Shown here: positions 4,732-39,502 of the stretch, piece after piece
Position numbering within the stretch: the stretch's first letter is position 1
How the letters are laid out: every line of letters starts with the position of its first letter
Origin: Malassezia furfur
Lineage: Eukaryota
Assembly (NCBI GenBank): GCA_052055015.1
Contig: JBQJIT010000054.1
Reading direction: 5' to 3' (one strand)
Length of the DNA stretch: 40,166 nt
The notes under the pieces: generated by a model
Seen by the model: only the letters and a program-made list of their open reading frames with translations
What the model was told of the DNA's origin: nothing
The model's database searches: none
Translations under genes and position numbers: made by a program

Positions 4732-5558
4732 CTATGTCGGTGCGGCCGCCTCGTCGAGCAGGACATACTCGCGGCGGCTGGCGCCAAACTGGCAGGTGTC
4801 GCCGGAACGTAGCTCGTAGTAGCGCGACGCGGGTACCTCTTCGCCGTTGACAGTGCTCCCGTTGGCTGACTCCAAGTCGATCAAAAAGGGTCTAGGTCAG
4901 CGGCCGTACGTACTGGACATAGCGCTGCTCGTCGCCAAACTCGTTGCGTTTCGTGACGAGGCGGAACTGGATCACAGCATGTTGCTTTGAGCATGACGGG
5001 TGCTCCACAGGGATATCGGCGACCGTGCGGTCGCGGCCGAGCAGGTAGCACGACTGGCGCCCAAGCACGAGCATGTCAGGGTAAGCGAAGACCATACGTA
5101 CCGACTTCCTTGCCGTCCTTGAATACAAATAGGCGCCAGTTTGTGGCTGGACGCCGCGCCTCCGGTGGTTCGTGGTACTTGAGAGCGACACCATTGAGGC
5201 TGTTGCTCTCCTTAGCCAAGAGTCCAGAGGGCGCAAAGTTGGGCGCATACGATGCGCCTGGCCGCTCGCTCGGGCGCTCGCTCGGCGAACGCGAGCGGCG
5301 TGCATCGCGCTCGCGGCGCTCGTGCCGGTCCGAGCGGCTGTGCCGCGCCGTGGTATCGTCGTCATCGCGCCGCGGACGCTCGGACCGCGAACGCTCAGAC
5401 CGCTCGCGGTCGCGGCGGTCGTGGCGTGCGCCGTCGTCGTCGTCGCGCCGCGACCTGTGTGATCGCCGTTCGTCGTCGTAGCGCGACCGCCGTTCGGCGC
5501 GGTCGCGGTCGTCGTCAGACCGCCGCGCGGCACGTTCCCTGCGCTCGGCGTCGGACAT
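4732..5558 (-). CDS. PML1: FHA-domain RES-complex subunit, SNIP1/Pml1 homolog; 3 exons
   Basis: RD/RS-rich N-terminus, PNFAPSGLLAKESN, LKYHEPPEARRP..NWRLFVFK, FHA motifs YLLGRD, HPSCSKQHAVIQFR and PFLIDLESANGSTVNG. Introns 5101-5077 (25 nt, ends TG) and 4913-4892 (22 nt). TAG at 4734-4732. Confidence 0.88.
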
Positions 5559-5630
5559 GACGCAAAGGTGAGTCAGCTCCACATGTCCTTTTTTTTGGCT
5601 TCCCACTGCCACTTTCGAAGAACGCACAGC

Positions 5631-8484: not shown

Positions 8485-10018
8485 ATGTCGTCGGACCTTG
8501 CATTCCCCGACAAAGCATCCGTGAGCGTTTCCGACGCCTCGCCGGAGCTCGAGCACCACACTGTGCACACGGGCGCTGCTGCACTCGTCCCTGAAGAGGT
8601 CAGCGAGGCCGAGCGCCGGCATGTACTGCACAAACTCGACTGGCTCCTGCTCCCGCTCGCAAGCGGGTGCGTGCTCCTCCAAATGCTCGACAAGACGCTC
8701 ATTAACTATGCAAATCTGATGAATTTCCGTGCGGATCTCGGCCTCGAGAAGCAGGAGTACTCATGGCTGGGCAGCATTTTCTATTTCGGCTACCTCGCCG
8801 GCACGCCGCTCCACGCCATTGCCCTGCAGAAATTCACGCTCAGCCCATACATCTCGTTGGTGGTGATCATCTGGGGCGCGGTGCTTGCATGCCATGCGGC
8901 TGCGCTCAGCTGCGGCTCGTTTCTCACTGTGCGCTTTTTCCTGGGCTTTTTTGAGGCAGCCATCAACCCGGGCTTCATCCTCCTGACCGGCCGCTTTTAC
9001 ACACGCGCGGAGCAGGTAATCCGCGTGGCCATCTGGTACTCGATGAACGGCTTTGCAATGATCGTGGGCGGCGCAATGACCTACGGCATCCTTATCCACC
9101 CGGCGCCGACGCTCAACCGCTGGCAGGAGATGTTTGTGGGCGTCGGCGTCATTACCGTGTCGTTTGGCATCCTGTGCTTGTACGTGCGCACACTCACCCA
9201 GCTTCATTATGCCCTCCTCCCCCGAGACGACCAAATACCTCACCGAGCGCCAGCGCGGCGTCGCTGTCCTCCGTGTCGCGTCCAACAAGTCGGGCATCCA
9301 CGACACGCGCATCAAGAAGTACCAGGTGATCGAGGCCCTGACCGATATCCGGCTGTACATCTTCTTCCTCGCGTTTTGTACCGTGAACATCACCAACGGC
9401 GGGATCAGCATCTTTGCATCGCAGATCATTACCGCCTTTCACTTCTCCAACCCCAAGGCCGCGCTCCTTGGTATGTGCCAGGGCGCCGGCGAAGTTGTGG
9501 CCGTGGTGATTGGTACAGCGCTGTTCCTATGGCTCGGCCGCCGCGACGTTCCGTGCCTGTTTGGCTACGCGGTGGCCATTGCCGGTGGCGTGATGATGAC
9601 TGCGTTGGATTCGAGCCAGTCGGTGTCGCGCATGGCCGGCCTGACCCTGCTCTACTTTTTCCCGGTGTCCTACCCCATGTTTTACAGCTGGATGAGCGGC
9701 GCCGTGTCGGGCACGACGAAGCGGATCATCTTCAATGCCGTGCTCCAGATTGCCTATTGTGTAGGCAACATCATCGGGCCTCAGGTGTACCAGAGCAAAT
9801 ACGCGCCGCAATACACCGTCGCCAAGACGATCGACTTTGTGATGTTTGCTGTGTCGGCAGGTTTTGTGATGTGCCTCACAGCCGTGCATTTTACGTGGAA
9901 TCGGCAGCGTGATCGGCAAGCGTCGTACGCGGACAAGCTTGACCAGGAGGAGCAGCTCGATGTGGACCTGTCCGACCTCACCGACAAGGAGCGCCCCTCC
10001 TATAGATACCCGTATTGA
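8485..10018 (+). CDS. MFS transporter, allantoate permease (Dal5/ACS) family, copy A; 2 exons
   Basis: LHKLDWLLLP, QMLDK, WLGSIFYFGYL, RFFLGFFEA, GNIIGPQ, C-terminal DLTDKE..YRY. A 22-nt intron at 9180-9201 (gtacgt...ctcacccag) joins the two frames. Confidence 0.9.
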
Positions 10019-11825: not shown

Positions 11826-12161
11826 TGTAGTCCCTCTTATCTCGGCCAACCTCGGATTAAGTTCGTCGCAACCATCGCGAAGGCTTGGCAAGCCGTAATG
11901 ATTACTGATATCGAGTCATCGTGGACCCTCATCGACTTTATATCGCTTGCTCGCTTAATCTGACGTGTCTGTGCGTCCATGTCATAGGCCCTTGCGTTCC
12001 GTTTAATATCTTAATATCAATATATGCTTATCTCCCCCCAATATCCAGGCTTCTGCGTGATCCCTCACGAGACCCTTATCGCTTGGCATGCACATGTGAA
12101 TTACGATCGTTCCTTTAAATGAGTAACCTTGGGATCACAAGTCATCACACGCTTGCTCGTT

Positions 12162-13733
12162 ATGTCTTCAGCCAAAGACCTAGAGGCTGAGAAATACGGG
12201 GTAGAAGTGCCTTGCAAAGACCAGCCAGAAAAGCAGGCCGATGTCGTGGATCTTGTCCCTGACTGGCAACCATCCAAAGAACAACAAAAGCGTGTTCTTC
12301 GGAAGATTGACCTGCTCCTTATACCACTGATGTGCGGCTGTGTTCTATGTATGTATGGTCTTCAGTCTGACTCCTAGTTCAAATGCTAGACAAAATTCTG
12401 TTGAACTCAGCCGTTCTCTTGAATATCAAAGAGGAGACACATCTGAAATCAAGCTGGGAGTTCACCTGGATCAACAGTATTTTCTATTTTGGATACCTTA
12501 CAGGGACACCAATCCATGTATACTTCCTACAACACGTTCCACTGAGCTATTACGTCTCTGGGATCGTTACCGTATGGGGCGTTGTGGTCGCATTGCATGC
12601 GGCATGCCATGATTACGGAGGTCTATTGACTGTGCGATTCTTCCTGGGTCTTTTCGAGGCTGCCATCACCCCAGGCTTGATTCTCATGACAGGGCGATTC
12701 TATACTCGCAGGGAACAGATGATTCGCACAGTTATCTGGTTCTCGTTCAACGGTTGGGCTTTTATTTTTGCTGGAATAATTACCTATGGTATTCTACGCC
12801 AAGGCGAACCAGCTCACATTAAGAAATGGGAAGAACTGTACATCATATTAGGTGTACTGACTTTTTCCTGGGGGCTTTTGTGCTTTTTCGTTATGCCAAC
12901 ATCTCCAGATACCACCAAATACTTCAACGAAGAAGAGAGCGGCATCGCGATCTCCCGCGTGGCCGAGAATCAATCCGGCATCCATGATTCTCACTTCAAA
13001 TGGTCCCAGTTCAAGGAAGCCTTGTTGGATATCCGGCTCTACATGTTCTTCTTGGGATATGCCTGCATTTGCGTGACAAATGGCGGAATCACCTCTTACA
13101 GCAGCCAAATTATCAAGGAGTTTGATTTCTCGAACGAGAACACATCCCTATTGCAGATGGCACAAGGCTTGTCCGAAGTTGTTGCAGTATTTATGGGTGC
13201 TGGAATGTTTGCATATTGTAATCGCCGCGATATTCCTTCGATGGTTGGACTGGTTATTGCTATGGTTGGCAGCATTATGATGGTGGCTCTGGGACCTGAC
13301 AAGAACTCTTCTCGAATGGCTGGTACGTTTCATCGTGATATGAATATCTTACATCCAAGGTCTTTGCCTCGTCCTCTTTTTTGCCATCCCACTGCCGATG
13401 TTCTACAACTGGCAGAGCGTTTCTGTTTCAGGGACCACAAAGCGGCTGATCTTTAATGCAACTCTGCAGCTTGCCTATGGCGCTGGAAACATTGTTGGGC
13501 CTATGACCTACAGCGTTTCTGCTAATCCCAAGACTCCGATGATTGCAATGATTGTTCTGTTTGGTGTGAACGGTCTTTTTGTCATGCTTATCTCTGCTAT
13601 CCATAAGTTATGGAACCGCCAAAGGGACGCAAAAATGGCGTCTTTAGATGGGCTGGACTCGGATCATCAATTACAAGTCGATCTTTCAGACTTGACTGAC
13701 AAAGAGAGACCAACTTTCCGATACCCTCGTTGA
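12162..13733 (+). CDS. Dal5-family MFS permease, copy B; 3 exons
   Basis: GT-AG introns 12349-12377 (29 nt) and 13323-13359 (37 nt) join three ORF fragments into a protein colinear with copy A. Confidence 0.9.
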
Positions 13734-14010
13734 GATCTTCCCACTGTAAGGCTATCCGGGCTATTATGTTCTACGTTATCGGACAAGTCGCCCGAACATA
13801 ACGATTTGTCGTGGAATTAATGCTAGCTTAAATCAATTCTAGTGATTAGGCACGATGTCCTTCAGTGTTGGGAGATAAGAGTCATCTTACCCTCGCCCTC
13901 CCAATAACTATCTTATCATGTACGATAGGGCTATTGCGTATTGGCCCGGGGAATAAATTTATATTTAAAAAAGCGAAACTCGTACGTATGTCGAAATCGA
14001 AGCATTCATC

Positions 14011-15583
14011 ATGCTCGAAACAAAGGATCCAGAGCAGCTTGGAGACGACAAATACCTCAAAACCAAAGATGATCTGCCTACGAAAGAGGTCGCGCTTGCC
14101 GACTTCGTTCCTGAATGGGAGCCTACGCTTAAGCAGAAAAAGCAGGTGCTTCGAAAAATTGATTGTCTACTCATTCCGTTAATGTGCGGTTGTGTGCTAT
14201 GTAAGTGTTTATCAATCTAACTCTTTTACAGTCCAAATGCTTGACAAGATCCTGCTGAATTCAGCAGTACTGCTTGACATTAAAAAGGAAACACACTTGA
14301 CTTCAAGCTGGCAATTCACCTGGATTAACAGCATTTTCTATTTCGGCTACCTCACCGGAACTCCCATTCACGTGTACTTTCTTCAGCATGTTCCTTTGAA
14401 TTACTATGTGTCTGGAATTGTTACCTTTTGGGGTGTTGTTGTTGGACTTCACGCTGCATGTGAAGACTACTCGAAGCTATTGACTATTCGATATTTCCTG
14501 GGACTGTTTGAATCAGCTATTACGCCTGGTCTGATTCTTATGACAGGTCGTTTCTACACTCGGCGAGAACAAATGGTCAGAACGGCGATCTGGTTCTCAT
14601 TCAATGGATGGGCATTTGTCCTTGGAGGTCTCATCACGTACGGGATCTTACGTCAAGGCGAACCAGCGCACATCAAGAAGTGGCAAGAGCTTTACATCAT
14701 CTTGGGAGTGGTCACATTCGTCTGGGGTATACTTTGCTTTTGTGCAATGCCATCAGCTCCCACTTCTACAAGGTACTTGAATGAAGAAGAGAAGAAAATT
14801 GCGGTATACCGCGTTGCCGAGAATCAGTCATCCATCCATGATAAAAAGTTCAAATGGGCCCAGTTCAAGGAAGCTCTCTTGGATGTACGGCTGTATACCT
14901 TTTTCTTCGGATATGCCTGCATTTGTGTCACAAACGGAGGGATTACATCTTACAGCAGTCAAATTATTAAGGAGTTCGATTTCTCCAACGAGAACGCATC
15001 GTTGCTTCAGCTTGCGCAGGGGTTGGCTGAGATTGTTTCTGTTTTGATGGGTGCTGCTATTTTTGCTTGGTGCAATCGCCGCGATATTCCATCTCTATTT
15101 GGATTGATCATTGCTTTGATTGGCAGCATCATGATGGTTGCTTTGGGAGCAGATAAAAACTCATCTCGAATGGCTGGTACGTGATGGCTAAAAGTTTCTC
15201 ACATATCAGGTCTTTGTCTCGTCACATTCTTCTCGATCGCCCCGCCAATGTATTACAACTGGCAGAGTGTTTCGGTTTCCGGGACGACGAAACGGTTAAT
15301 TTTCAACGCCAGTTTGCAACTTGCCTATGGTGCTGGCAACATCATCGGGCCAATAACCTACAGCGTCTCTGCTAATCCCAAGACTCCAATGATTGTTATG
15401 ATCGTGCTCTATGGGCTGAACTGTTTGTTTGTTGGGCTTATTTCTCTCATCCATAAGAGGTGGAATCTGCGAAACGAGGCAAGAATGCCTGCTTTGGAGG
15501 GCGCTGTCGCCGATGAACAGCTGCAAATTGACCTTTCTGATTTGACCGACAAAGAAAGACCCAATTTCCACTACCCTCGCTAA
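14011..15583 (+). CDS. Dal5-family MFS permease, copy C; 3 exons
   Basis: Introns 14201-14231 (31 nt) and 15177-15209 (33 nt) sit at the same codon positions as in copy B. Confidence 0.9.
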
Positions 15584-15820
15584 GAATGCAAAATCTTTAG
15601 CACGGGGTGAGGCATATTCGGTATCAAGCACCTCTTCACTATCAAGATTATGCAGTCTGTGTGGCATCGAAATCAAAGTGTACATACCTATCACCAGCTT
15701 CATTGGTGGAAAATTTGCTCATTTCTTATCAATAGGTATATATGCTTATATGTGAATATATTTATGGGGAAGGCTCGTACCTTAAATACGGAAAGCCAGT
15801 GTTCAAGGAACTCACCCGCT

Positions 15821-17384
15821 ATGTCCTCGATGAAAGATGTGGGTTTAGAGAAGAGCGTCATTTTTAAAGATGGATTACCAGAGAAAGAGGTAGAAGTAGT
15901 TGACCTCGTTCCGGACTGGCAGCCCTCAAAAGAGCAGCAAAAGAAGGTTCTCAGAAAAATCGATTTACTTCTGATTCCGCTACTGTGCGGTTGCGTTCTT
16001 TGTATGTCAATAACTTCATCTGACAGGAAGTCCAAATGCTTGATAAAATACTGCTCAACTCTGCCGTTCTTCTGAATATAAAACAAGAGGCACATTTGAA
16101 GTCAAGCTGGGAGTTCACATGGATCAACAGTATCTTTTATTTTGGATACCTGACAGGAACGCCTATTCATGTGTACTTCCTACAACATGTTCCGCTGAAC
16201 TATTATGTCTCTGGGATAGTTGCGGTTTGGGGAATTGTGGTATCGCTGCATGCAACCTGCCACGACTACGCAGGACTACTTGCCGTTCGATATTTCCTGG
16301 GTCTCTTTGAGTCTGCCATCACCCCTGGCCTGATTCTCATGACAGGCCGCTTTTATACCCGCAAAGAGCAAATGATCCGAACGGCTATTTGGTTCTCATT
16401 CAATGGATGGGCACAGGTCTTTGCTGGGTTTATCACATACGGGATCTTGCGGCAGGGGCAGCCGGCTCATATTAAGAAATGGCAAGAATTGTACATCGTA
16501 TTGGGTGCTCTTACCTTTACATGGGGTGTTCTGTGCTTCATCATTATGCCTACATCTCCTGACACAACGAGATATTTGAATCAAGAGCAAAAAGGTATTG
16601 CAATTTACCGTGTGGCTGAAAACAAGTCGGGAATTCACGATTCTAGATTCAAATGGTCACAATTCAAAGAAGCTCTATTGGACGTTCGTTTGTACATGTT
16701 CTTCCTTGGTTATGCAAGCATCTGCGTCACAAATGGAGGGATTACATCTTACAGCAGCCAAATCATCAAAGAGTTTAACTTTTCTAATGAAGATGCTGCA
16801 CTTCTTGGAATGGCCCAGGGTTTTGCTGAAGTTGTCGCCATATTTATGGGCGCTGCTATTTTTGCCTGGTGCAATCGACGCGATATTCCATCAATGCTCG
16901 GACTGATCATTGCTGTGGTCGGCAGTATCATGATGGTCTCTCTTGGTGCAGACAAAAACCCATCACGCATGGCTGGTACGTATTTGTCACAATCATTTCT
17001 AACGACACAGGCCTTTGTCTCGTCTCCTTCTTTTCTATACCAATGCCCATTTTCTACAACTGGCAAAGTGTGTCCGTATCAGGAACAACAAAACGACTCA
17101 TATTCAATGCAACGCTTCAACTAGCGTATGGATCCGGTAATATCGTCGGCCCTATTACTTACAGTGTTTCATCAAATCCTAAAGTACCAATGATTGCAAT
17201 GATCGTCCTTTTTGGAGTAAATGGCCTGTTCATTTTAATGATCTCGGCGATCCACAAAGTATGGAACATGAGCCGTGACAAGCGAATGACTAGTTTTGAG
17301 GGCATTGATTCCGACAACCAGCTACAAATTGACCTTTCTGACTTGACGGATAAGGAAAGACCTACCTTCAGGTACCCGCGCTAA
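15821..17384 (+). CDS. Dal5-family MFS permease, copy D; 3 exons
   Basis: Introns 16002-16030 (29 nt) and 16976-17010 (35 nt) sit at the same positions as in copies B and C. Confidence 0.9.
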
Positions 17385-17561: not shown

Positions 17562-18226
17562 CTAGACTGCCAGTGAACGACGAAGGACACGTTCTGCCAT
17601 GGGCTTATAGTGTTGCAATGGCGGCGTTTCCAGTCCGACTACTTTTGCACGATCGTCCCATAGCCTAAGCTTCACCATTTCCTCATGGTCGGGGTCTTTC
17701 TTGAACTCTTCGACTTCCTCGGGTGTGAATGGTCCTCCCTGCATTCGGAGTGACGCCTGCGATGCGCTCGACAAAGATGCCAAATAGTCGGGTCGAGTTG
17801 CCGTAAGGAAGCTGTTGGTTAGTAGTCCGTGTGCACATACCGCTTTGATGTCACATGTGCACCAACCAAGCTTGCGACTTTTCTGGGCCAACCATGCAGA
17901 AGCAGCCATCGCTGTCCAATGACGTCATGCCCGTGCCGGCCAACATTAGCACCCATTTCTTCATCGATCATGGTTCCTCCCGCCTTGCAGTTGCGAATCT
18001 CTGATAATGGAAGGAATTGACCAATGTCATGAAGAAGTGCCGCAATAATTGCATCCTCGTCGTTGACTTCTTGTTCAGCGAAGTAAGCCGCTTGCAAGCA
18101 ATGTTCAAGCTGTGAGATAGATTCTCCTAGATAATCACCTTTGCCTTGATCCTCAAGTAGTTGAAATATATAGGCAATATGTTCTTCTGGCGAAGAACTG
18201 TTCATTGTAGTTGAAGGTTCTGTCAT
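17562..18226 (-). CDS. phnZ: PhnZ-like HD-domain mixed-valent diiron oxygenase (C-P bond cleavage); 2 exons
   Basis: YLGESISQLEHCLQAA, AALLHDIG, H(DVIG), LVGAHVTSKR|FL, YLASLSSASQASLRMQGG, LRLWDDRAK: the PhnZ-family YxxE, H, HD, H, H, D layout. Intron 17840-17812 (29 nt, CTAAC branch point). Confidence 0.85.
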
Positions 18227-18310
18227 TGCAATCAATACAGCGAACGTCGTGCATGATAGGCTCCTAGTATATAAAGTTAACCCCGTGATAATTGCAATTG
18301 TTTTTTTACC

Positions 18311-18352
18311 CGGACAGATATCCGATCCGGAGAGTTCACCGAAATGCACGTG
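18311..18352. promoter_or_regulatory. Two tandem CGG-N8-CCG sites plus a CACGTG E-box upstream of the phnZ-like gene
   Basis: cggacagatatccg (18311-18324), cggagagttcaccg (18328-18341), CACGTG (18347-18352). Confidence 0.6.
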
Positions 18353-18700
18353 TACCTAGGAGATTTAGCCGAAGCGCATGTGCACTTCGGAGTTCAATTA
18401 ATTTTTAATGGAGTTTATCTGTTCGACGTTGACAATATCAAGTCGTGACGAAGCTGCGGAAAAGATACGAAAAGCGGTACTAGTAACATACTGGGCTCGA
18501 CTTACGCTGAACAAAAATAAAAGTGTTCAATTGTTTCCCTTGTATACTTCTACAATACTCAGACCCATCGTGGTAGTAGTGAGCTGATCGTATAGGTAAC
18601 GTTTTCCCTTCTCATTCCCTGTATATATGGCTGGGAGATTTACACCCAGAAGCTATGTAAACATCATGATTCTCATTATGCGTAGAAAAAAACCGAAGAC

Positions 18701-20254
18701 TCAAACGTTAACCACTGGCTTGTCGTCCAAGAAGTCATCAAAAGAGCTTGCTCGATAAGCATCCGGCTCATCAAACGATTCACTTGAAACCCCATGCATC
18801 ATCAGGAACTCACGGAAACGAATATCTTCGTTTTGTAAGTTACGATCATGGTCACCGGGGATGAACATGAAGGTAATAAGTGCGCCAAGGAGCGAAAGAC
18901 CGGCACCAACGAAAACAACCACACGGAGACCTTGAGTAGTCGTGTCCTCCTCAGGTGTAGCATAGTGGGCAAGAATTCGGTTGAAGACAACAGTACCAAC
19001 AGCGGCACCAGCCTTAGCGACAGATGCGGCCAGACCGACAAAATGGCCTCGGAAAGCAGTTGGGAAGCACTCACTGCTGACAAGCAACGTTGTAACACCT
19101 GGCCCAAATTCACCGCAGCTGAGCATTATTCCGTAAAGAATAATGAAAAGTGGCATTACCGTCTGAATTGGTGCCAGTGCGCCCGCAAGCACAAATGCAA
19201 TCATGCTCTGGGAAACAAACCCAAGGAGCATTGTATTACGGCGCCCAATCCTGTCCAGTGCAAAGTAGCCAAGGATACACCCAGGGATGTTGAACGAGTT
19301 GATCAGAGCACTGTAGCCAATCGAGACGATCAGGTTTTTGCTGTTTCCAGGAAGTCCGTCGATAATATTGGGGGTGAAAAGTCCAAATGGGTAAGCAACA
19401 AAGTCGTAAAGGAACCAGGTCAAACATGTACCAATAATTTGACGCCAGTATCGCTTTACCACAAGCATATACACCCTCAAACTCATACCCTTAGTCATAG
19501 AATGGTTCTTGAAAGCTGTACTGCTTGCCATTCTGTAACGGAAGAAGAATACAGTGGCAGGAATGATGCATCCCAAACCAAGAGTGATGCGCCATGCAGC
19601 TTTCAGGTGCATAGTCTCGTCAGCGGGGGTTGAGCTGTTGTAGCCAAAACCAGCCAGGATGCAAAGAGGAAGAAGACCGCCAAAGACAATACCAAAATCA
19701 ACAGCCGTGCATCCAACCAGACCAACAATAAGGCCACGATGCTTGCGAACCGCATTTGTCTCGTCACCAGCTTCAGTTGAACCTGTGCTGCATACAGGGT
19801 ATTCACCACCTGCACCAAAACCAAGAATGCCACGCGACACAGTAAGCATCCAGAACATCATGTGGGGGCTTGGTCCATACGATCCAGTGCAAAGTGCAAC
19901 ACCGATGATCATCAGAGCAGTTGCGAAAACAACTCCCGTTTTCCTTGAGAAATGGTCGATGAGCAAACCAAAGGCGAAAGAACCGAGACAGAGACCAACG
20001 TAGTATGCGCTGGAGACCCGGCCTTTCATTTCACCAGAGTATTCATCACCATAAAGTTTCTTGAACATGGCATTGACTGATCCGAGTGCCTGAGAGTTGT
20101 ATCCATCAGATGCCAAAGCGATGCCCGACCAAACAACCATCAGTACTGAGCTAACATTGAGTTTGTCGACCCCAGCGCGAACAGGCTGGTCCAAAGGCTG
20201 GGGCTCCTTCGATTCAGGAACTTCTTCTTGTCAATGTTCAGGTTGAGCAGACAT
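18701..20254 (-). CDS. MFS transporter, Git1/Pho84-like (glycerophosphodiester/phosphate:H+ symporter family); in-frame TGA at codon 8
   Basis: GIALASDGYN, FGLLIDHFSRK, RGILGFGAGGEYP, WRITLGLG, TWFLYDFVAYPFG, EFGPG, FPTAFRG. The ATG at 20254 is in frame but is followed by TGA at 20233-20231. The next in-frame ATG is at the start of TM1 (near 20141). Confidence 0.82.
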
Positions 20255-20477
20255 GATGACGATTGCATTGCCCTTTGCCAAAGCCTATTAAATATCCCCC
20301 GCTGCAGCTCATTTCAAAAATTCAGCTTGTCTTGAATTTTGGAACGTGCACAGGATAAGCTTAGTTGATTAAAAATTGCGCTTATCCATTGGTCAAAGAT
20401 TACCACATGCTCGCGTGCAAGATCTCACAAAGCCACGCGCCTCGGAACGGCCCCGAGGCCGCTTCGCACGTTCGGCG

Positions 20478-22878
20478 ATGGAGACCGGAGCTGAGACCGG
20501 AGGCCCGTCGCTCGTTGTGAGCCGCAGAGTGACAGCTTGTGATCCATGCAGAAAACACAAGGTAAGTGAAAGTTTTCTGATAGGTCCAGCTGAGATGCGA
20601 TATGCATGAGAATGATGAGGCGTGCCGCCGTTGTATCCAAAAGGGGATAGAATGCGTGCGCCGCAAGAAAGACCTCCAAAGCCTACTTGATGAGCAAAGT
20701 GATTGGCGCACGGACATGGAGAGAGAAATGCGAGCGCTTCGATCTTCCCTAGATCAAGTGTCTACGACATTGGCTCAACTTGCAAGACAGCGACCTGCAC
20801 CTGAAGAGCCCCCGCGCAAACGCCAAGCCGTACAAGCAGAAAACATTCGAAATGCTCCAGATGATTCCGACTTGGCCACAGAGGGGCTATTGGGGCTTGC
20901 AGGGCAATGGCCGACACCAAGTCAAGGAAGTTCTAGGATTGAACGGAACATCGTGAACGAACCTCGGTCACGCGCCGATATAAGTTTGAATAACCCACTT
21001 GCGGAGCCTACTCTGCTTACCTCTCCAGAGCGGAGCGAATCACCAGGAGTTACGTCATCTTCAATTCGCGGTGATGTCCTTCACCAAGGTATCCTCACTC
21101 TCGATGAGGCAGTTGAACTGTTTTACCTCTACTTCCGAATGCTCGACCCTCACATTTGTCATCTTATCGGACCAATTCATGGCATCCAAGACCTCCCAGA
21201 AAAGGACAGTACGTACGGTCTTGCTGTAAGTTCTCCCCTTCAACGCATGCTTCTTCTTGCGATCGAGAGTGTTCGCAATTCATCCAAACTCCTTTTCGTC
21301 TCAATACTTTGTGTTTCTGCTTTGCACATGAAACAAAACTCAAACAATCATCATCTTTTCCCATCATTGTATCGCGAATTCATTCGATTGGCAGCCATCC
21401 AGGCTTTTAGTCGACATCAAACTCTTGATGATATTCGCGCTCTTGTGGTCGGTTCATTTTGGCTTAACGATGTGAGCTGGACTTTGGTGGGGACAGCTGT
21501 ACGTATTGTTACGGAAAGACACATGCACGAGAGCTATTCCCATTGGGTTCCAAGTGCTCCTCTTTTACGACGTAAACGTCAAAACCAATCTATTCCATCT
21601 GGACGCAGCGCATCCGATACTACAGGGCGCACTCCGCCAAACAAAAACGACTCTCCCATGCACATTGCTTATGAAGAGGCACGGTTATACTACTTGATCT
21701 ACATTGCAGATCACCAAAGCTCCATTCCATATCGACGGCCGCCAATGACTCGGCAACATGAGGTGGTTCGTCGTGCAGTGGAATGGCTTAACAACTGCCC
21801 ATGGGCAGAAAACCGAAGCGACACGCGTCTTGTTGCTTTGGTAAAGATGTGGGAGATTTTACATGATGCTATTGATGAAATTGGCTCTGACCTTCATGCT
21901 CCACCTGATGAACTGGGACTTGCATTTCATGCACGGTTTCAAGGTCAGATCGAAGCATGGTATCAAACTTGGTCTCGGGAATTCTCCGTTGTGGACACTT
22001 ACGAAAAGAACGATATTAACCGGCAGCGCCTGTATGCCGAACTTTTCCTACACTCAATGGCGTTCCGAACGGATAAAAATGCCCTGCCCGTTTTTTTCCC
22101 AGCACAAGTAACGAATGAGATGATGGGCGAGTCAAATTCAGCCGTGAAGCATGCATGTTTTCAAGCAGACCGCAGACGTGTCATTGCAGAAAATGCTGTG
22201 GATTCAGCGCATCGTATTTTGGAGCTGCTGGGGGCTGATATGGCCCATCTGGACATTTTGACAGGAAGCACTTCTTATTCACACACAATGACTACGTTTG
22301 CAATTGTACTGCTTGTCAAGGCGCTCAAGCAGTTCGGGAACGAAGAAAACCCGCATCATTTGCGCGGGGCAGATTTGCGTTCAGTTTTGCGCAGTATTGA
22401 TCCTGCTCTGCGAGCACTTGTCATGGGGGCACAATGTGTTGCAAAAGAGAATATGTTGGTCAATATCACAGCTGGCGCGAAGCAGTCTATCGAACAAATC
22501 CGCGTTGCCTATGCATCTCTACTCCCAGAGTCCCATGTCCCTATTTCTCAACCCCACAGAAGGATGGAATATTATCAAAGGCAACCCCCGCTTGACCCAA
22601 TACCTCGTCTTAGTACGCCGCGCGTCATCCAGGCGCAAAACCTTCCTGCGTGGACTCCGCCTATACGTACACCACCAGTGAATGTTCAATCATCTGGAGC
22701 TCCGAATTCAGAACAGCAACAACAAGAATTGGGCGCAATCAACTCTTTGGAAGGCTTTGATCTCCTCTCTGGACAAATTCCTCTTTCAGGAATTGATCTA
22801 TTCCAAGACACCACACTGGGAACCGGCGTCGATGTATCTGACTTGTCATCCATGTTTGCTGCAGCAACGAGTCCTTAA
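20478..22878 (+). CDS. Zn(II)2Cys6 fungal transcription factor; 2 exons
   Basis: Removing the intron at 20562-20589 (28 nt, GTAAGT...CAG) gives ACDPCRKHK|LRCDMHENDEACRRCIQKGIEC, followed by a coiled coil and a middle-homology-like region (ARLYYLIYIADHQSSIPYRRPP). Confidence 0.92.
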
Positions 22879-22922
22879 TCCTAGTCCTAGCTCTATTGTA
22901 AAATACGAGAAAAAATGGTTCT

Positions 22923-23822
22923 TCACGCAGCACCCGTTTGTCCAAGACGCTGGGTTTGAAGGCGGCTGAGGTCCGTCGCGCCCCACATCGGCGACCCGAA
23001 GCCATACTGCTTTGCACCGTATGAGTAGTCCTGACCTTGCACGCGCTCAGCCGTCGGTGGCCACTCCTTGCGGCGCTTGATATAGTATGCCTTGTGACGG
23101 TCTCCACAATCCGAATACGCGTTGAAAGTCGCGTAAAGAGCGGCACGGCGGTTGTTCGACTTGTTCGAGCCACTGCGGTGCGCAAGGAACGACCCGAAGA
23201 TAAGAGTGTCGCCCGGCTGGAGAGGAACAGGCACCCACTCTTGCTGGGATTCCCACTCGTGTTTGATGCAGTTGTCATCACCGATAGGCACGCCCATCTT
23301 GTGACTTCCAGGGACAACCTCAAGACAGCCGTTTTCAGGTGTCGCTGCATCGATCGCCAAGTTGATGGTCAGGTGCTTGAGTGCGCCGGCGTGCTGGTAA
23401 GCAGGTGCATCGGTGTGGGCATCAAACCCACCCGCACCAGGGTGCTTGTAGTTGATCTTTTCCTTGAAAAGGACCATGGGCTCCTTGTTGATCTGTTCAA
23501 GAATGCCCAGAAGACGCTGGCCGCGGAAAAGCTTGTCGAAGCCATCGTGGAAGTCGGCAAAGTTCTCTGTACGGCAAAGGACACGGGTACCATCTTCGCG
23601 CTGCTCTTCATACGGCATCCACTTGCCTGGCTCGTAAGGCCAATCATGGACATTCTGCGACCATTGTTGGATCTCTTTGGTGGTCGGCTCGTCGAGAAGG
23701 TCACGGAGAATCAGGAAGCCGTCGCGATCGAACGAGGCCAGCTGCTCTTCCTAGAGGGTGTAAGGCTTGAGAAGGGTTTCAGCCATTGCTTCAGAGATCT
23801 TTACTTGCTGTTCCGACGCCAT
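22923..23822 (-). CDS. phnY: PhnY-like Fe(II)/2-oxoglutarate dioxygenase (PhyH family); in-frame TAG at 23753-23751, or a 54-nt intron
   Basis: EEQLASFDRDGFL...W...PGKWMPYEE...LCRTENF...VLFKEKINYKHPGAGGFDAHTDAPAY (HxD), ENGCL, PGD, H-RSGSNKSNNRR, KRRKEWPPTAERVQGQDYS. This resembles bacterial 2-aminoethylphosphonate dioxygenase PhnY along its length (recalled, not aligned). The reading frame extends upstream of the track ORF to ATGs at 23786 and 23822. Confidence 0.82.
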
Positions 23823-23875
23823 GGTCGTAGTTTCTTTTATCCCTTCGAAGTTCCGAGTCTAATCGTCTCGAACTT

Positions 23876-23940
23876 CGGGAGCCACTCCGGGCTCGGTTTT
23901 CTCTCCGGCGCACGGACACCAAATTTAAAGTGTGCACGTG
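23876..23940. promoter_or_regulatory. Two tandem CGG-N8-CCG sites plus a CACGTG E-box upstream of the phnY-like gene
   Basis: cgggagccactccg (23876-23889), cggttttctctccg (23894-23907), CACGTG (23935-23940). Confidence 0.6.
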
Positions 23941-24035
23941 CCCCAAGGACCAATTAGCGTGTTGCTATTGTAGCGCGTGGTGGTTCAGTTTCTCAGCAGG
24001 GTTCCGGAGCATTGCCGGGGTACGGGTTGTGCCCG

Positions 24036-26102
24036 ATGCATCGTCAGCTGTCTATCATACGCATCTTCTCGGTAACAGTTGTGGTAGCAGCGCTACTGGT
24101 ATCTGCTTGGTGGATCAATACTGATACCGGACGACAATTTGCACACAGCAAATATGCATTCCCATTAGTGCCCAGTCACTGGCCGCGACTGTCGGTCAAT
24201 GAGGGTCCTCTCTCGATGGACCCCGCTTTTGCTAGAAAGGCTCCTTCGCAAGAGCGCCTTTACAACTGGACCATATCTAGGGACGTGAGAGCACCCGATG
24301 GAATACCGCGTCTTATGTACACCATCAATGGACTCTTTCCTGGTCCTATAATCGAAGCGAATGAGGGTGACGTTCTAGCAATCCAGGTACACAACGCCAT
24401 CTTCGACAACGAAACTCTTCCTAACCCTCCAATGTCTTCCCAGATTGATTCAGTGTTTCGAAAGGGCACTGAACGTAGCATCGCTATGCATTGGCATGGT
24501 CTCTCCATGCGGGGTACTCAAGAAATGGATGGTGCAGTTGGATTCTCTTCTTGTGTCCTCCGTCCTGGCGAAACGTTCACTTACCGGTTTGCTTTACATG
24601 CGGAGGATGTGGGAACCCATTGGTATCATTCACACATTGGTACATCACGAGCTGATGGGCTCTGGGGTATGCTTATTGTTCATTCCCGACACAACGAAGC
24701 GGCTCTTTTACGAAAGTACAGCACAAATGCAACCGAGGCACTTGTGTGGGACGAAGATGTGGCAGTTGCTTTAGGGGATCATTTCCATGAGCAAGGGCCA
24801 GTGTTTTTGGCACGCTATGTTTCACGGTGGATGCAGAAGGCAGAGCCTGTGCCGGCGAGCGGCCTAATCAACGGAAAGCATCGCTTTAGCTGCGAGCATA
24901 GTCGTCTCACGCAAGTACCATGCCCAGCGGATCCTCTCGGGAAAGAGATTGTCGGGGAGTACTCAACATTTTCGTTAGACCCTTCAAAACGGTATCGGCT
25001 ACGTCTAGTCAACGTCGGCTCCCTCGCTGAGCAGACTTTCTCAGTTGACGGGCATTCTTTGACTGTAATCGAAGCAGATGGCGTCCTTGTTGATCCATTT
25101 ACAGTTCATCGGCTTCCAATTGCGACAGGACAGCGGTATTCTGTGCTTCTTAACCGTCTTGACGACCAGCAACAAGTATGGATGCGTTCAAAGATGTCTG
25201 CCGAATGTTTTCAGTATATGAACCCTGTTCTGGATTTGGTAACAAAAGCTATTGTGGAATATCAAGACTCAGGACCAAAGGGAAGCTGGCTTTCACCTCT
25301 TCGTCGAGCTGTGAAAGGCCGCAGGGATCTTGCTCAGTTTACATCTTCTCGGCGTCGGAATCGAGCTTTACAAAGCAAGCTCCCATCCTCGCGCGGTTGG
25401 GGCGACAACGTGGAGGATCCCAAAGTTCCCAGTGAGCCTTGTCATGACCTCGACAACGCAGCGTTGACGCCATTGATTTCAGACCCTGCACCTGAACTAA
25501 ATTTTGAACGAGGAGACGTGCGTGAGACTGTGTTAATAACGGTCCAAACACGAGAGAAATATGGAATTGTACCAATGGGGTACATGAACCACACTACGTG
25601 GCGAGCTGGTGGAAGCGGCAAGGTGCCGCGTCCACCTTTGCTTCATCGTATTTCACACTCGAATTCCACTGACCCTAATGTATGGGTGGACGATGGGCTA
25701 ATCGATTATGACCATGAATTAGTGGTTTCTCCCCATCCCAACAGCTCCGTTGTTATTGAGCTTGTGATCAACAATCATGACGATTCTGAGCACCCGTTTC
25801 ATTTGCATGGGCACAAGTTTTGGGTTATGGAGACAGGCGAAATTGACCCAATGTGGGGTGGCTACAATGACTATGTTGATCGAGGACAAAGATACGATTT
25901 GAACCGCGTTATGAAGCGTGACACTTTTGTCATACCAATGATGGGTTATGCCGTCATCCGATGGATTGCGGACAACCCTGGTGTTTGGCCTTTTCATTGC
26001 CATATGCTGGTGCATCTCGAGAGTGGAATGGCAATGGCAATTGCAGAGCAACCCGCTTTGCTTCAGGCGTCTCCTCCAGTACCAAAGGTTTGTGCTACGT
26101 AA
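24036..26102 (+). CDS. Multicopper oxidase (laccase-like, AA1) with an N-terminal membrane anchor or signal
   Basis: Copper motifs HWHG, WYHSH, HPFHLHG and HCHMLVHLESGM. Hydrophobic N-terminal segment IFSVTVVVAALLVSAWW. Confidence 0.93.
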   Translation: MHRQLSIIRIFSVTVVVAALLVSAWWINTDTGRQFAHSKYAFPLVPSHWPRLSVNEGPLSMDPAFARKAPSQERLYNWTISRDVRAPDGIPRLMYTINGLFPGPIIEANEGDVLAIQVHNAIFDNETLPNPPMSSQIDSVFRKGTERSIAMHWHGLSMRGTQEMDGAVGFSSCVLRPGETFTYRFALHAEDVGTHWYHSHIGTSRADGLWGMLIVHSRHNEAALLRKYSTNATEALVWDEDVAVALGDHFHEQGPVFLARYVSRWMQKAEPVPASGLINGKHRFSCEHSRLTQVPCPADPLGKEIVGEYSTFSLDPSKRYRLRLVNVGSLAEQTFSVDGHSLTVIEADGVLVDPFTVHRLPIATGQRYSVLLNRLDDQQQVWMRSKMSAECFQYMNPVLDLVTKAIVEYQDSGPKGSWLSPLRRAVKGRRDLAQFTSSRRRNRALQSKLPSSRGWGDNVEDPKVPSEPCHDLDNAALTPLISDPAPELNFERGDVRETVLITVQTREKYGIVPMGYMNHTTWRAGGSGKVPRPPLLHRISHSNSTDPNVWVDDGLIDYDHELVVSPHPNSSVVIELVINNHDDSEHPFHLHGHKFWVMETGEIDPMWGGYNDYVDRGQRYDLNRVMKRDTFVIPMMGYAVIRWIADNPGVWPFHCHMLVHLESGMAMAIAEQPALLQASPPVPKVCAT

Positions 26103-26520
26103 TAGTATGCGTTTTTCAATCTTTCTAATGCCCTCAAACAGCAGCAATAAGTTTAGATACTAGCCTCCATATCACAATTCAGTTGCATTTTCTGTACATA
26201 TTTCGCCAGTAATGGAATGACTGTTGTCCAATGCTAAAATGTGCTGGAGATCCTGCGGTTGTGTATTCTCGAACTCGACTGTAATGGGCTAGTCTCGCTG
26301 CATTACTGGTCATTTTTTGGCGTGTAGACCAACCCAGCCAATCCGGTAAGTGGAATTAATCACGCGCCATAAAGTGACCTTACCCCGCATCGCTTTAGAT
26401 CGCACGTGTCCACTCCTGCAGCAACACTCCGTAGCAAACTTGTCCCGATATAATGTGGGAGTTAGCAGTCTTCCAAGGAGTCCACGCTGGACTTACCAGC
26501 TGGACAAGATTTGTGCAGAT

Positions 26521-28452
26521 ATGGCACTCACATTGGCCCGGTATGCTGCCTTTGGCTTTATGGGCCTTAGTACTTTGGCAGGAACGGCCGCCATGAACCA
26601 TCACGACTTGCGGGACATCAAACATATTGTTCTTTTCATGCAGGAGAATCGCGCATTTGACCACTACTTTGGTACTATGGAAGGTGTGCGTGGATTCCAA
26701 GACCCAAACGTGCATATTTCGAAGAACACAGGGAAAAGCATTTTTCATCAGCCGGTCGATCAAACGATCGAGGACGATGCACCTCCTGAAGGTGTTTCCG
26801 AGCTCATGCCTTGGTATTTAAACTGGCAAGGAGGAGACTGGTCTCAACGCACACAATGTATGGTTGCCGGAACGAATGACTGGCGTGAAAACCACGCGGC
26901 ATGGAACAATGGAGAGGTCGATCAATGGGCCATTGCGAACACACCGTACTCCATCGGTTATTACCGCCGCGAGGACATTCCCATTCAGTTTGGCTTGGCC
27001 GGGAATTTTACTGTCGGTGATGCCTATTATGAGTCTATTATTTCATCGACGGACCCTAACAGAGTGTCATGGTTTTCCGGCACGATCAACGTTAATGGAA
27101 CAGCAACGAACGGCGTCAACAAGAAAAAAGGTGGCCCTGTAATTGACAACAATACTGATCCTAAGTGCCTGAAGGCCGATGATGGTACACCTTTTTCGTG
27201 TCGACCATTGACTTGGAAGACAGTTCCAGAGTATTTGGAAGAATCCGGCATCAGCTTCCGGGTTTACCAAGATTTCGACAACTTCGGTGATGATACACTA
27301 GTTGAATGGTCACAATATCAAGAGGCCGCCAAACGTCGTGAAGATTTTGCTGCAAGGAGCGTTGGGTTTCCTGGACTTGCACGATTCTACAAGGATGCAA
27401 GGGAAGGAAATCTACCCGAGATTTCGTACATCGTCGCACCTCAAGATCTTTCGGAACATCCGCCATATACTCCGCACGATGGAGCATGGCTTCAACGAAA
27501 GGTCGCTGAAGCCGTCATGCATGGGAAGGACTGGAACAGCACAGCATTAATTGTGTCTTTTGATGAGACTGGAGGTTGGGCAGACCATGTTATTGCTCCT
27601 CTCCCCCCCAAAGATGCAAAAGGAGAGTGGATGGTCGATCCCTACAACAAGTCAATCGGATTGACACCGACAGGCCCAGGATTCAGATTGCCGTTCTACA
27701 TTATTTCCCCATGGACGCGCAAAGGTGGCGTTTTCACGGAACATTCATCCCATGAGAGCCAAATCCTCTTCTTGGAGGAATGGTCTAAAGCGCATGGGAA
27801 ACCGTGGAAGACGCAGCAAATGAATCCTTGGAGGAGGCAGCATATGAGCAACTTGGTCAAGGCATTTGATTTTTCCAGCCCCGACTACAGTACCATTGAA
27901 CTTGAGCAAGTTCCAGAAGCCTCCAAAGACCCTATCACTGGACAATACAACGGTGCATGGGTGTGCCAACTTCGATTCTTCAGCAAGGTGCAACCCAAGG
28001 TGCCCTATGGAAAGCAAACTGAGAAAGAGGCGCTTCGTGTTGAAGCTGGCTATAAACCGGTTCGCGGAGATTTGAGCGAGGGTCGCTATCTCACCTTCGA
28101 GGCTAATGGTCATGCCCTGAGCCACTCTTCCCAACGCTTGAGCGCCAGTAAAGCTCACCCAGACCACAACCACGATGACCAGCTCTTTGTCATTCACTGG
28201 CAAGGCTCAGAACCACGCGATAATCGCTTCAAGATTGCAAGTCCTGGACGACACCCTCGCTACATTACGTCTAACTTGAAGTTGACCAAGAGTGTGAAGA
28301 AAGCCGCAATCTTCGAGATCGCGGATCTGGGGAATGGCAAAGGATATACGATTACCGAACATGGGTCAAAGAAACAACTGTCTATCTCTAAAGATGGTGC
28401 TGTGGCACATACAAACCATGCTACGTTCAAGGTGTTTAGTGTTACGAAATAA
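26521..28452 (+). CDS. Secreted phospholipase C, phosphoesterase (PlcH/PlcN/AcpA) family
   Basis: Signal peptide, IKHIVLFMQENRAFDHYFGTM.GVRGF.D, STDPNR, SEHPP, DETGGWADHV, GPGFRLPFYIISPW. Confidence 0.92.
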   Translation: MALTLARYAAFGFMGLSTLAGTAAMNHHDLRDIKHIVLFMQENRAFDHYFGTMEGVRGFQDPNVHISKNTGKSIFHQPVDQTIEDDAPPEGVSELMPWYLNWQGGDWSQRTQCMVAGTNDWRENHAAWNNGEVDQWAIANTPYSIGYYRREDIPIQFGLAGNFTVGDAYYESIISSTDPNRVSWFSGTINVNGTATNGVNKKKGGPVIDNNTDPKCLKADDGTPFSCRPLTWKTVPEYLEESGISFRVYQDFDNFGDDTLVEWSQYQEAAKRREDFAARSVGFPGLARFYKDAREGNLPEISYIVAPQDLSEHPPYTPHDGAWLQRKVAEAVMHGKDWNSTALIVSFDETGGWADHVIAPLPPKDAKGEWMVDPYNKSIGLTPTGPGFRLPFYIISPWTRKGGVFTEHSSHESQILFLEEWSKAHGKPWKTQQMNPWRRQHMSNLVKAFDFSSPDYSTIELEQVPEASKDPITGQYNGAWVCQLRFFSKVQPKVPYGKQTEKEALRVEAGYKPVRGDLSEGRYLTFEANGHALSHSSQRLSASKAHPDHNHDDQLFVIHWQGSEPRDNRFKIASPGRHPRYITSNLKLTKSVKKAAIFEIADLGNGKGYTITEHGSKKQLSISKDGAVAHTNHATFKVFSVTK

Positions 28453-38311: not shown

Positions 38312-39118
38312 TTACACAGGCCAATTTCTTTGTAGGTGTCGAACCATGTCAGCACTGATGTCAAGGTCCAATGATTTTAAGACTTGATCAATATTTGCCG
38401 CCTGGACATCCTCGCAATCGTCTTCCTTTCCGGGACTCACGGTATAAAGCTTGTTTCCAACCAGTTTGCGCAGCACGCCTCCTTTGATTCGTATGACAAC
38501 CGGTCGGCCAAAGAACGGCGATTTAGGAAACGTAGCAGTATAATGATTTAAGACAACAAAATCGACCTTTCGGACCGGAAGCTCACTCCATTCGTGCTGG
38601 GCAACCCAGTGGTCCGAGTCCCTCTTTTCCAGGCGCCAGAAAGGGCCATTGCGCATAATTCTATGCGGGAATCCGAGTTGTTCAACCATTGCCCCGGATC
38701 TAACGGGCATAGGATGTAGAATTCCCCCGCCAAAACCGACATCTGCCATCCATTTTCCGTCGTGGTCCTCTGTAACCACTTCAACTAGGACATGGGTGGT
38801 TGTTCCAGGTTTGTCCGGAAAAACACGGGAGATCCGTCGCTCAATTTTGTATCCAATCCTTTCCAGTGCCGCAGAAAACAGCATGATATGCTCAAAACAG
38901 TATCCTCCACGACGTTGGTATACGATCTTATTTTGTACGTCCTTCATGTCAAGGGACGGTTCAACGCCACATGCTGGGTCTAGATTCTCGAAAGGAATGT
39001 TTAGAACGTGAGATTTGCACAAGGACAAAAGATTGGCTGTAGTGGCACCCTCGATTGGAGGATGGTTAATACGTCGCAAGTATGCGCTCAGATCAAGCTC
39101 ATTAACCTCCCATTCCAT
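38312..39118 (-). CDS. Arylamine N-acetyltransferase (NAT)
   Basis: LDLSAYLRRI, IPFENLD, RRGGYCFE (catalytic Cys), THV (His), WMADVGFG (Asp). First ATG at 39118; the track start is TTG. Confidence 0.92.
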   Translation of the reverse strand: MEWEVNELDLSAYLRRINHPPIEGATTANLLSLCKSHVLNIPFENLDPACGVEPSLDMKDVQNKIVYQRRGGYCFEHIMLFSAALERIGYKIERRISRVFPDKPGTTTHVLVEVVTEDHDGKWMADVGFGGGILHPMPVRSGAMVEQLGFPHRIMRNGPFWRLEKRDSDHWVAQHEWSELPVRKVDFVVLNHYTATFPKSPFFGRPVVIRIKGGVLRKLVGNKLYTVSPGKEDDCEDVQAANIDQVLKSLDLDISADMVRHLQRNWPV

Positions 39119-39502
39119 ACCGGTAATGTCCAAGCGGAGATGAAGGCTCGGCCGACCTTCTATCAGTATTGATGGTCCGTGCGCGGTGATCGGTCACATA
39201 TCCACTGGCTCGTGCGTCCGGACTCGAAGACGCTTCAGCAATACGAGATCGACTGGGCGAAATTCTGCATGGTTTATATGTCCATAAAAATGAAGAACGA
39301 GGTAGTGCATCAGTGTACAAGTTCTTAAACGTTTCACAAAACTTACAAGCCGTCTGACTAGCACAGTGCACGAGCCAACTTCCTTCGGCGAATTCTCCGA
39401 CTGGCTGCGTGCGTCACATCCAGACCTACAGAAATCCATATCATATCCGTTTACAACCAGGTAGCTATATTGTAGTATTAACTTAGCGATGTGATCGAAC
39501 TT

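Follow-up and report, generated by a model that had tools for sequence, protein, structure and literature searches.

The 40,166 nucleotides of Malassezia furfur DNA analysed here (contig JBQJIT010000054.1, hereafter the window) carry a predicted cluster for the oxidative catabolism of phosphonates, in which two enzyme genes, one for an HD-domain protein resembling PhnZ and one for a PhyH-type protein resembling PhnY, have promoters built from the same two kinds of element: a CACGTG-type PHO box and a tandem pair of inverted CGG triplets with an eight-nucleotide spacer (CGG-N8-CCG). From the comparison of sequences we regard it as plausible, at a likelihood only just short of even, that both promoters are dual-input, the PHO box answering to a basic helix-loop-helix (bHLH) regulator of the Pho4/NUC-1 type and the tandem N8 sites to the Zn2Cys6 factor encoded in the cluster. 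Control by two inputs had been put forward in the original prediction, and its two halves fare differently. A phosphate-starvation input is strongly supported by comparison, both with a known consensus and with the promoters of other fungi. The Zn2Cys6 input is backed by statistics within the window, by a six-cysteine factor in the cluster, by the apparent linkage of this factor to the enzyme genes and by triplets kept in the indirectly read promoters of two closer relatives, but in distant relatives N8 sites are not enriched and neither a tandem pair nor an orthologue of the factor was found.

Promoter elements of the two enzyme genes

Upstream of the HD gene, CGG-N8-CCG sites lie at 18311-18324 (CGGACAGATATCCG, with the extended form CCGGACAG-N4-CCGA) and at 18328-18341 (CGGAGAGTTCACCG), and they are followed by GCACGTG at 18346-18352; between the CGG pair and the start codon a TATA-like element of putative function, TATATAAAG, can be read at 18269-18277. 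Upstream of the PhyH gene, the sites at 23876-23889 and 23894-23907 read CGGAGTGGCTCCCG and CGGAGAGAAAACCG on the minus strand and are joined by the palindromic PHO box GCACGTGC at 23934-23941, in a divergent promoter shared with a multicopper oxidase (MCO) gene. A scan of the sequence returned every motif position given by the original prediction: N8 sites at 18311, 18328, 20486, 23876 and 23894, CACGTG at 18347 and 23935, and CACGTT on the minus strand at 20343-20348 (AACGTG on the plus strand). It also returned the CGGA found on one strand of all four promoter sites, and the CGGAGAG common to 18328 (plus) and 23901-23907 (minus). In all five sites the triplets have the inverted CGG...CCG orientation looked for in a Zn2Cys6 site. 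Moreover, the four promoter sites have in common a longer asymmetric form, CCGGA[GC][AT]G-N4-CCGA, and the sites of each pair are 17-18 bp apart. The fifth site (20486-20499) is at the claimed distance from the transporter gene, 232 bp from its ATG at 20254, but it is not a promoter site; it covers codons 3-8 of the Zn2Cys6 factor and, being inside this coding sequence, is weak evidence.

In the whole window CGG-N8-CCG occurs 23 times against 12.35 expected, a count that none of 100 shuffles reached, but this excess is inflated and misleading because 13 of the 23 sites fall in the GC-rich first 11.9 kb. Between 11901 and 40166, 4.2 sites would be expected and 10 are present (P=0.0065); six of these fall between 18311 and 23907. 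Two tandem pairs appeared in none of 2000 dinucleotide-preserving shuffles of this low-GC 28 kb, and one pair in 1% of them. When single promoters were shuffled 20,000 times each, the event being at least two N8 sites together with at least one CACGTG, the composite had P=5e-5 for the HD promoter (474 bp) and 6e-4 for the PhyH/MCO promoter (216 bp). A scan of all 33,280 strand-collapsed gapped motifs of the form 3-Nk-3 (k=0-15) for enrichment in three cluster promoters placed CGG-N8-CCG second (p=7.7e-6), the top motif, CGG-N7-TCC, being the same sites one base longer. Alone, CGG-N8-CCG is not significant after Bonferroni correction over all motifs; it reaches significance when a Zn2Cys6 prior limits the set to 63 CGG-type motifs, and among these 63 spacings and orientations only the N8-inverted form and the overlapping N9-direct form give two pairs.

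Aligned with each other, the HD and PhyH promoters have best local matches that coincide exactly with the E-box and the CCGG pair, the latter in opposite orientation, and no similarity beyond the motifs was found in this alignment. Thus, the motif match is not explained by a recent duplication. The form CGGA-N7-CCGA has six matches in the window, four of which are the promoter sites; a fifth, CGGAGAATTCGCCGA, lies at 39385-39399 (minus strand), between an N-acetyltransferase gene (38312-39193) and a P450 gene. In addition, CGGCTACCTC[A/G]CCG is found within the coding sequence of two MFS paralogues, at 14344-14374 and 8787-8800, and at 14344 a CACGTG follows 11 bp later, at 14369; a lone N8 site with an E-box can therefore arise in coding DNA.

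The CCGGAG half-sites could also be targets of a C2H2 carbon-catabolite repressor of the CreA/Mig1 type, which recognises SYGGRG and prefers paired sites. CCGGAG does fit SYGGRG, CreA is described as preferring adjacent sites (PMC7985698), and the PhyH/MCO promoter holds four SYGGRG in 213 bp, where the background is 3.3 per kb. Yet the explanation fails for the HD promoter, with one SYGGRG in 474 bp and no enrichment, and it leaves a CCG exactly 8 bp away in all four sites unexplained; furthermore, the same paper reports no enrichment of SYGGAG among CreA targets. We consider a repressor of this kind very improbable as the reader of these sites.

Conservation in distant and closer relatives

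Distant relatives were collected by scanning metagenome contigs with the PhyH protein. This gave 80 loci. Grouping of upstream regions by blastn yielded 19 groups, and 16 fungal-like representatives were used after dropping L012 and L040, which stand with bacteria-like rows in the PhyH tree, and L026 (35% GC). Loci at 44-58% PhyH identity were taken as fungal because of their split alignments and of neighbours such as ATG9 and hydrophobin; in these loci PhyH is repeatedly found beside an HD gene and a PHS transporter gene, often with MCO and phosphoesterase genes.

Of the 16 non-redundant loci, 14 have CACGTG in the 700 bp that precede PhyH, and so do 5 of 7 HD upstream regions; upstream regions contain it at 1.71 per kb, the remainder of the loci at 0.32 per kb (binomial P=1.5e-8). 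It was missed in L032, where the upstream DNA amounts to 340 bp only, and in L011, where boxes lie farther out (4906 and 5031); in L008, of the L009 group, a box also stands upstream of HD. An unbiased k-mer scan of the 16 loci gave CACGTGG as the top 7-mer (14/16, P=1e-11) and AACGTGC as the second (8/16, P=3e-6). Since CACGTG recurs in this way upstream of PhyH and HD in distant fungal loci, control of the cluster through the PHO box appears to be old and widely kept across fungi.

Over the whole window CACGTG alone is not enriched (14 against 14.2 expected). GCACGTG, which is the consensus obtained for Neurospora NUC-1 by DNA affinity purification sequencing (PMC12506109), stands in three places only in the low-GC 28 kb: 121 bp from the first ATG of the HD gene and 113 bp from that of both the PhyH and the phosphoesterase gene, upstream in each case. 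The distances are approximate, as PhyH may in truth start at a second ATG, at 23786, rather than at 23822. The third of these boxes (26402-26408, plus strand), absent from the original prediction, has no N8 site with it. The variant GCACGTT occurs twice in the transporter/factor intergenic region. One copy, at 20343-20349 on the minus strand, is 89 bp upstream of the transporter ATG and within TGTGCACGTTCC, which is also present in the PhyH promoter; the other, at 20466-20472 on the plus strand, lies just upstream of the factor ATG and had escaped notice before. At 18346, 23934/23935 and 26402 the CACGTG core has a flank of the G/C type, and it is conserved upstream of phosphorus-acquisition genes. 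Taken together, the PHO box is very probably a functional element.

Another bHLH protein, Cbf1-like or a repressor of the NUC-3 type, might occupy the boxes in place of a starvation activator, CACGTG being the general bHLH core. Cbf1 prefers T flanks, while the boxes here have G/C-type flanks, and among the relatives' PhyH-promoter boxes CACGTGG makes up 14 of 18, a T/A-type flank being present at only 2 of 36 half-sites. The genes concerned are moreover phosphorus-scavenging genes. This makes the alternative hardly probable, even though NUC-3 binds GGCACGTGA, with the same core (PMC12506109). The cluster agrees with the Pho4/NUC-1 regulon in the identity of GCACGTG to the NUC-1 consensus, in the position of the boxes upstream of phosphorus-scavenging genes and in the presence of the low-affinity CACGTT variant nearby. 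It differs in that the distant relatives favour CACGTGG flanks and that the organism is a Malassezia-like basidiomycete; the word phosphonate does not occur in the text of PMC12506109 as available, and its Datasets S1 and S2 may list PhyH or HD homologues as targets of NUC-1.

CGG-N8-CCG is present in 6 of 16 PhyH promoters and 1 of 7 HD promoters of the distant relatives. Five of these loci, on at least three branches of the PhyH tree, carry one 14-bp N8 inverted repeat, CGGyCTTCrCACCG (L007:349, L009:5758, L038:5711, L042:1434, L045:5713), 205-276 bp upstream of PhyH and within non-conserved flanking sequence. In four of the five it is 137-170 bp downstream of the CACGTG box, and in L038 the box is 35 bp downstream of the element. 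The window sites do not match this element above background when scored with a position weight matrix made from the five relatives. Nor are CGG palindromes, whatever their spacing, enriched as a class in the relatives' promoters (about 3.9 per kb in promoters and 4.5 elsewhere, rows summed by hand). In the clade of L010, L032 and L062, other CGG palindromes, CGGCGATwTTsTTCCG (N10) and CGGArCAnnnCCGAGAA (N7), are found upstream of PhyH, and the rest of the upstream regions is unalignable. Spacer length is N8 in all four promoter sites of the window and N7, N8, N9 or N10 among the distant relatives; the PhyH/MCO promoter itself has two CGG-N7-CCG sites that the original prediction had not listed, one at 24005-24017 and one at 24023-24035, immediately before the MCO ATG at 24036.

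For two closer relatives the promoters could be read through pseudo-translations. P0023 (88% identity, 40 extra residues) and P0025 (83%, 37 extra) are PhyH proteins called from open reading frames (ORFs) with N-terminal extensions that are translated upstream DNA, and they were compared codon by codon in the frame of the window PhyH ATG. The alignment of the extensions to the window upstream sequence reaches scores attained by 0.77% (P0023, P=0.008) and 0.13% (P0025, P=0.001) of shuffled extensions. In P0023, identity extends to 8 of 8 readable CGG/CCG bases of the two sites (23876-23889 and 23894-23907) but to only 29 of the 71 remaining readable positions (Fisher P=0.0015); the remaining four defining bases are on third codon positions and compatible, and the spacer of the second site has changed. 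In P0025 all four defining bases that can be read at the first site (23894-23907) are retained, as is most of its spacer (PCAGEK, encoding ...CCGGAGAGAAA). This retention of the triplets, read indirectly, lends moderate support to a Zn2Cys6 input. Conservation in orthologous promoters, which had been proposed as a check, is thus seen for the PHO box; for N8 there is no enrichment in the 16 distant loci, and in the pseudo-translated promoters triplets appear to be kept at both sites of P0023 and one of P0025.

The Zn2Cys6 factor and the cluster genes

The factor gene (20478-22878, plus strand; Pfam Fungal_trans) begins at the ATG at 20478, its first possible start because of an in-frame stop upstream. 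It holds a 28-nt intron (20562-20589) with GTAAGT...CAG ends and a CTGAT branch-like site, and removal of this intron restores a canonical C-X2-C-X6-C-X8-C-X2-C-X6-C motif at residues 21-50 of a spliced product of 790 aa; judged by eye only, a putative dimerising coiled coil follows the zinc cluster. A CGG-N8-CCG site not reported before, without the extended consensus, lies 17 bp upstream of the factor ATG (20448-20461).

Homologues of the factor at 49% identity or more number only seven. Factor homologue P0006, PhyH P0023 and HD P0144 all carry the same longest-contig value (10552). The same holds for P0008 with PhyH P0024 (98260) and for P0011 with PhyH P0031 (6747), no HD homologue being listed with either, and for P0015, a relative at 33% identity only, with PhyH P0036 and HD P0163 (84779). 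These equal values suggest that, within its lineage, the factor has kept its linkage to PhyH and HD. Farther away, none of the 80 metagenome loci had a tblastn match to the factor (threshold E<=1e-3). A six-frame regular expression for an uninterrupted Zn2Cys6 motif matched neither in the relatives' loci nor in the window, where it missed the factor because the intron splits the motif. Of the 116 unannotated ORFs with a length of 120 aa or more, 100 were compared with Pfam; they belong to 11 of 17 loci (L010, L001, L012 and L040 left out; L006 and L026 without such ORFs), and no factor turned up among them other than an unrelated PF11951 protein in L028. An Atlas search with the factor returned generic Zn2Cys6 clusters only. 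Tandem N8 pairs and the factor are thus both present in the window and both absent from the distant relatives, which fits a link between them, in one lineage only.

Inverted CGG triplets around an 8-bp spacer are a documented type of Zn2Cys6 site. ClrB binds CGGN8CCG, and loss of either triplet abolishes its binding (PMC13267753); the same site has been proposed for GliZ at gliA (PMC4006717). The window sites have the triplets and spacer of the ClrB/CLR-2 sites in common and differ in their phosphonate rather than cellulase/mannanase targets, their tandem pairing and their asymmetric inner consensus; we do not claim orthology to ClrB. Perhaps, then, the N8 pairs are real but serve a Zn2Cys6 factor encoded elsewhere, the cluster factor having other targets. 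The use of N8 sites by ClrB-type factors agrees with this, as do the five distant loci that keep CGGyCTTCrCACCG upstream of PhyH without such a factor nearby. We find it quite unlikely nevertheless, given that the window sites resemble that element no more than background does, that tandem pairs were seen only where the factor gene is present and that the factor appears to be linked to PhyH and HD in its lineage. From the sequences at hand, the chances that the local factor is what binds the N8 pairs are evenly balanced.

The local factor could also be a phosphate-starvation regulator comparable to Pho7 of Schizosaccharomyces pombe, so that both elements would report phosphorus status and not substrate. 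Pho7 is likewise a Zn2Cys6 factor at phosphate-responsive promoters and drives the starvation response of fission yeast (PMC5559640), and GCACGTT boxes flank the factor gene, which may therefore itself be starvation-induced. Against this stand the 12-nt site described for Pho7, TCG(G/C)(A/T)xxTTxAA, which is not an inverted CGG pair (PMC5559640), and its role as a master regulator that is not cluster-encoded, while the factor here has few relatives and the phosphoesterase promoter has a PHO box without N8. A Pho7-like role is distinctly unlikely.

The window genes were assigned by Pfam scans of stop-to-stop ORFs and are fungal throughout, for example a fungal tRNA ligase at 5463-8345. The candidate oxidative phosphonate-catabolism cluster comprises four genes, namely the HD gene (17562-18226, minus strand; Pfam HD), the PHS/Git1-like MFS transporter gene (18701-20254, minus strand; Pfam Sugar_tr and MFS_1; syntenic with PhyH in relatives), the factor gene and the PhyH gene (22923-23822, minus strand; Pfam PhyH), with the three-domain MCO gene (24036-26102, plus strand; Pfam Cu-oxidase) and the PF04185 phosphoesterase gene (26521-28452, plus strand; Pfam Phosphoesterase) adjoining. 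The HD gene starts at the ATG at 18226 and has an intron after ...VTSKR; the database ORFs P0002 and P0142 match this gene, and the relatives' ORFs stop at KR. A PhyH-type dioxygenase gene alongside an HD-domain gene is Pfam-confirmed in the window, and the pair recurs in fungal metagenome loci, often with a PHS transporter. The best named relative of the PhyH protein is annotated as 2-aminoethylphosphonate dioxygenase in Malassezia yamatoensis (82% identity), followed by matches in Violaceomyces (67%) and Tilletiaria (65%), and the HD protein has a match in Malassezia pachydermatis at 61%; on these grounds the DNA was taken to come from a Malassezia-like basidiomycete yeast. Single proteins of 450-475 aa with both HD and PhyH domains, fused like PhoF, are found in basidiomycetes (P0038, P0043, P0051 and P0111; Cutaneotrichosporon, Vanrija, Naematelia and Marasmius). 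MCO is syntenic in the relatives L001, L003, L005, L008 and L009, and the phosphoesterase in L003 and L009; the conserved unit may thus be larger than the cluster first described and include both.

Composition breaks sharply at 11901, with fungal genes on both sides. The first 11.9 kb have 57-71% GC and a CpG observed/expected ratio of 1.07-1.44, and 11901-40166 has 43-55% GC (about 48% overall) with a ratio mostly below 1; possibly, this low-GC part was acquired or is accessory. Three MFS_1 transporter paralogues in tandem (12371-17384, plus strand) immediately precede the cluster, each split over two or three ORFs, probably by short introns.

Two of the cluster genes have early in-frame stops. 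In PhyH, a TAG at codon 24 (23751-23753, minus strand) replaces a Ser found in the otherwise identical P0022 and in eight relatives (P0023-P0028, P0030, P0031), and its origin is a sequencing error or else a nonsense mutation particular to this strain. In the transporter gene, a TGA (20231-20233, minus strand; in-frame codon 8) comes seven codons after the first ATG; the relatives' alignments begin at the first residues past this stop, and the region around it looks coding. A gene model with a 54-nt intron removing the PhyH TAG was rejected, as the relatives' proteins run continuously through the segment, and so was stop-codon reassignment, as TAG, TGA and TAA are all found in frame and TAG also terminates other genes. 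The early stops in both genes may be sequencing errors or real loss-of-function changes.

A dual-input model of phosphonate-gene control

In the model that we favour, a bHLH factor of the Pho4/NUC-1 type would bind GCACGTG or GCACGTT under phosphate starvation; its targets would be the transporter and phosphoesterase genes as well as those for the two enzymes, and perhaps also the gene of the factor. The local Zn2Cys6 factor would bind as dimers to the tandem N8 sites, in the two enzyme promoters only, and add a cluster-specific signal. As the phosphoesterase has a PHO box only, the phosphonate genes would need, or be tuned by, this second signal, perhaps the phosphonate substrate. The N8 input would be specific to the Malassezia-like lineage carrying the factor, and the PHO box would be an ancient feature of the cluster. 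The assignment of proteins to sites, an activating and not a repressing role, and the kind of second signal are inferred; that the second signal is the substrate, as originally predicted, is pure inference and in our view doubtful.

Several observations weigh against this model. The matching architecture claimed for the two promoters holds for the order of the elements relative to the gene, but the asymmetric N8 site has opposite orientations relative to the gene in the HD and PhyH promoters. The N8 sites of the PhyH promoter follow a TTTAAAT element and are separated from the first ATG by no more than 54-85 bp; for this reason they may fall near or inside the transcribed region. In the 16 distant loci N8 is not enriched (0.52 against 0.29 per kb, P=0.13), no tandem pair was found, no orthologue of the factor was found within ~6 kb, and the inner sequence of CGGyCTTCrCACCG differs from that of the window sites. 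CGG-N7-CCG scores better there, with 8 of 16 loci and a nominal P=1.9e-5 before correction for 42 tests, an enrichment that shrinks when sites common to one clade are counted once and is suggestive only. As to the closer relatives, third codon positions are invisible in pseudo-translations, and 4.4% of random pseudo-peptides allow a compatible pair 14-22 nt apart; the second site of P0025 is lost in register, with a compatible site one base away, and CACGTG has become RACNTG in P0023, which permits AACGTG, the CACGTT variant. Finally, the early stops make it conceivable that in this assembly the cluster is undergoing decay; should the stops be genuine, this strain may retain the promoter elements as relics.

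Part of this would be expected if only the PHO box worked, the N8 pairs being chance or neutral and the local factor acting elsewhere or via other sites. The lack of N8 enrichment in the distant relatives, a spacing chosen post hoc with N7 sites in the same promoter, the lone composite in coding sequence at 14344 and 14369 and the indirect nature of the closer-relative test all speak for such an explanation. It would leave to chance the two tandem pairs that no shuffle reproduced, the local composites at 5e-5 and 6e-4, the second rank among all gapped motifs, the extra positions CCGGAsWG-N4-CCGA common to four sites, and the 8 of 8 triplet bases kept in P0023 against 41% elsewhere. On this evidence we think it unlikely that the PHO box acts alone, and the N8 pairs are probably functional elements.

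The dual-input model has the logic of a bacterial system. In Pseudomonas putida the 2-aminoethylphosphonate genes are under dual control of PhoBR and the LysR-type AepR, that is, of a global phosphorus-stress regulator and a cluster-linked, substrate-specific one (PMC9311074); the two systems are alike in function only, having different proteins and DNA sites and, in Pseudomonas, PhnWX instead of the PhnY/PhnZ pathway. The fungal oxidative pathway, with the same PhyH-type dioxygenase and HD-domain oxygenase, is in print as the PhoF fusion in Fonsecaea and as phnY*/phnZ pairs in Penicillium (PMC10574752, PMC12422055). The published text available describes enzymes and gene presence and is silent on promoters and regulators, and we found no literature on the regulation of fungal oxidative phosphonate catabolism.

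Pairing a pathway-specific Zn2Cys6 factor with a wide-domain regulator is a standard fungal pattern. The model fits this pattern and the dual control in Pseudomonas, and is thus useful rather than surprising: it is a concrete, testable cis-regulatory model, with a second, lineage-specific input tied to a cluster-encoded factor. The PHO box upstream of the pathway in ascomycetes and basidiomycetes would place the pathway in the phosphate-starvation regulon. We may further speculate, as a possibility on the unlikely side, that the lineage recruited a Zn2Cys6 factor into an ancient PHO-controlled PhnY/PhnZ cluster and that the tandem CCGGAsWG-N4-CCGA sites turn the enzyme promoters into an AND gate of starvation and phosphonate. 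If this is true, no phosphonate-sensing transcription factor would have been described in a eukaryote before this one, and in other fungi the PHO box by itself would control these enzymes. In a Malassezia-type skin yeast, the model also points to a nutrient-scavenging trait.

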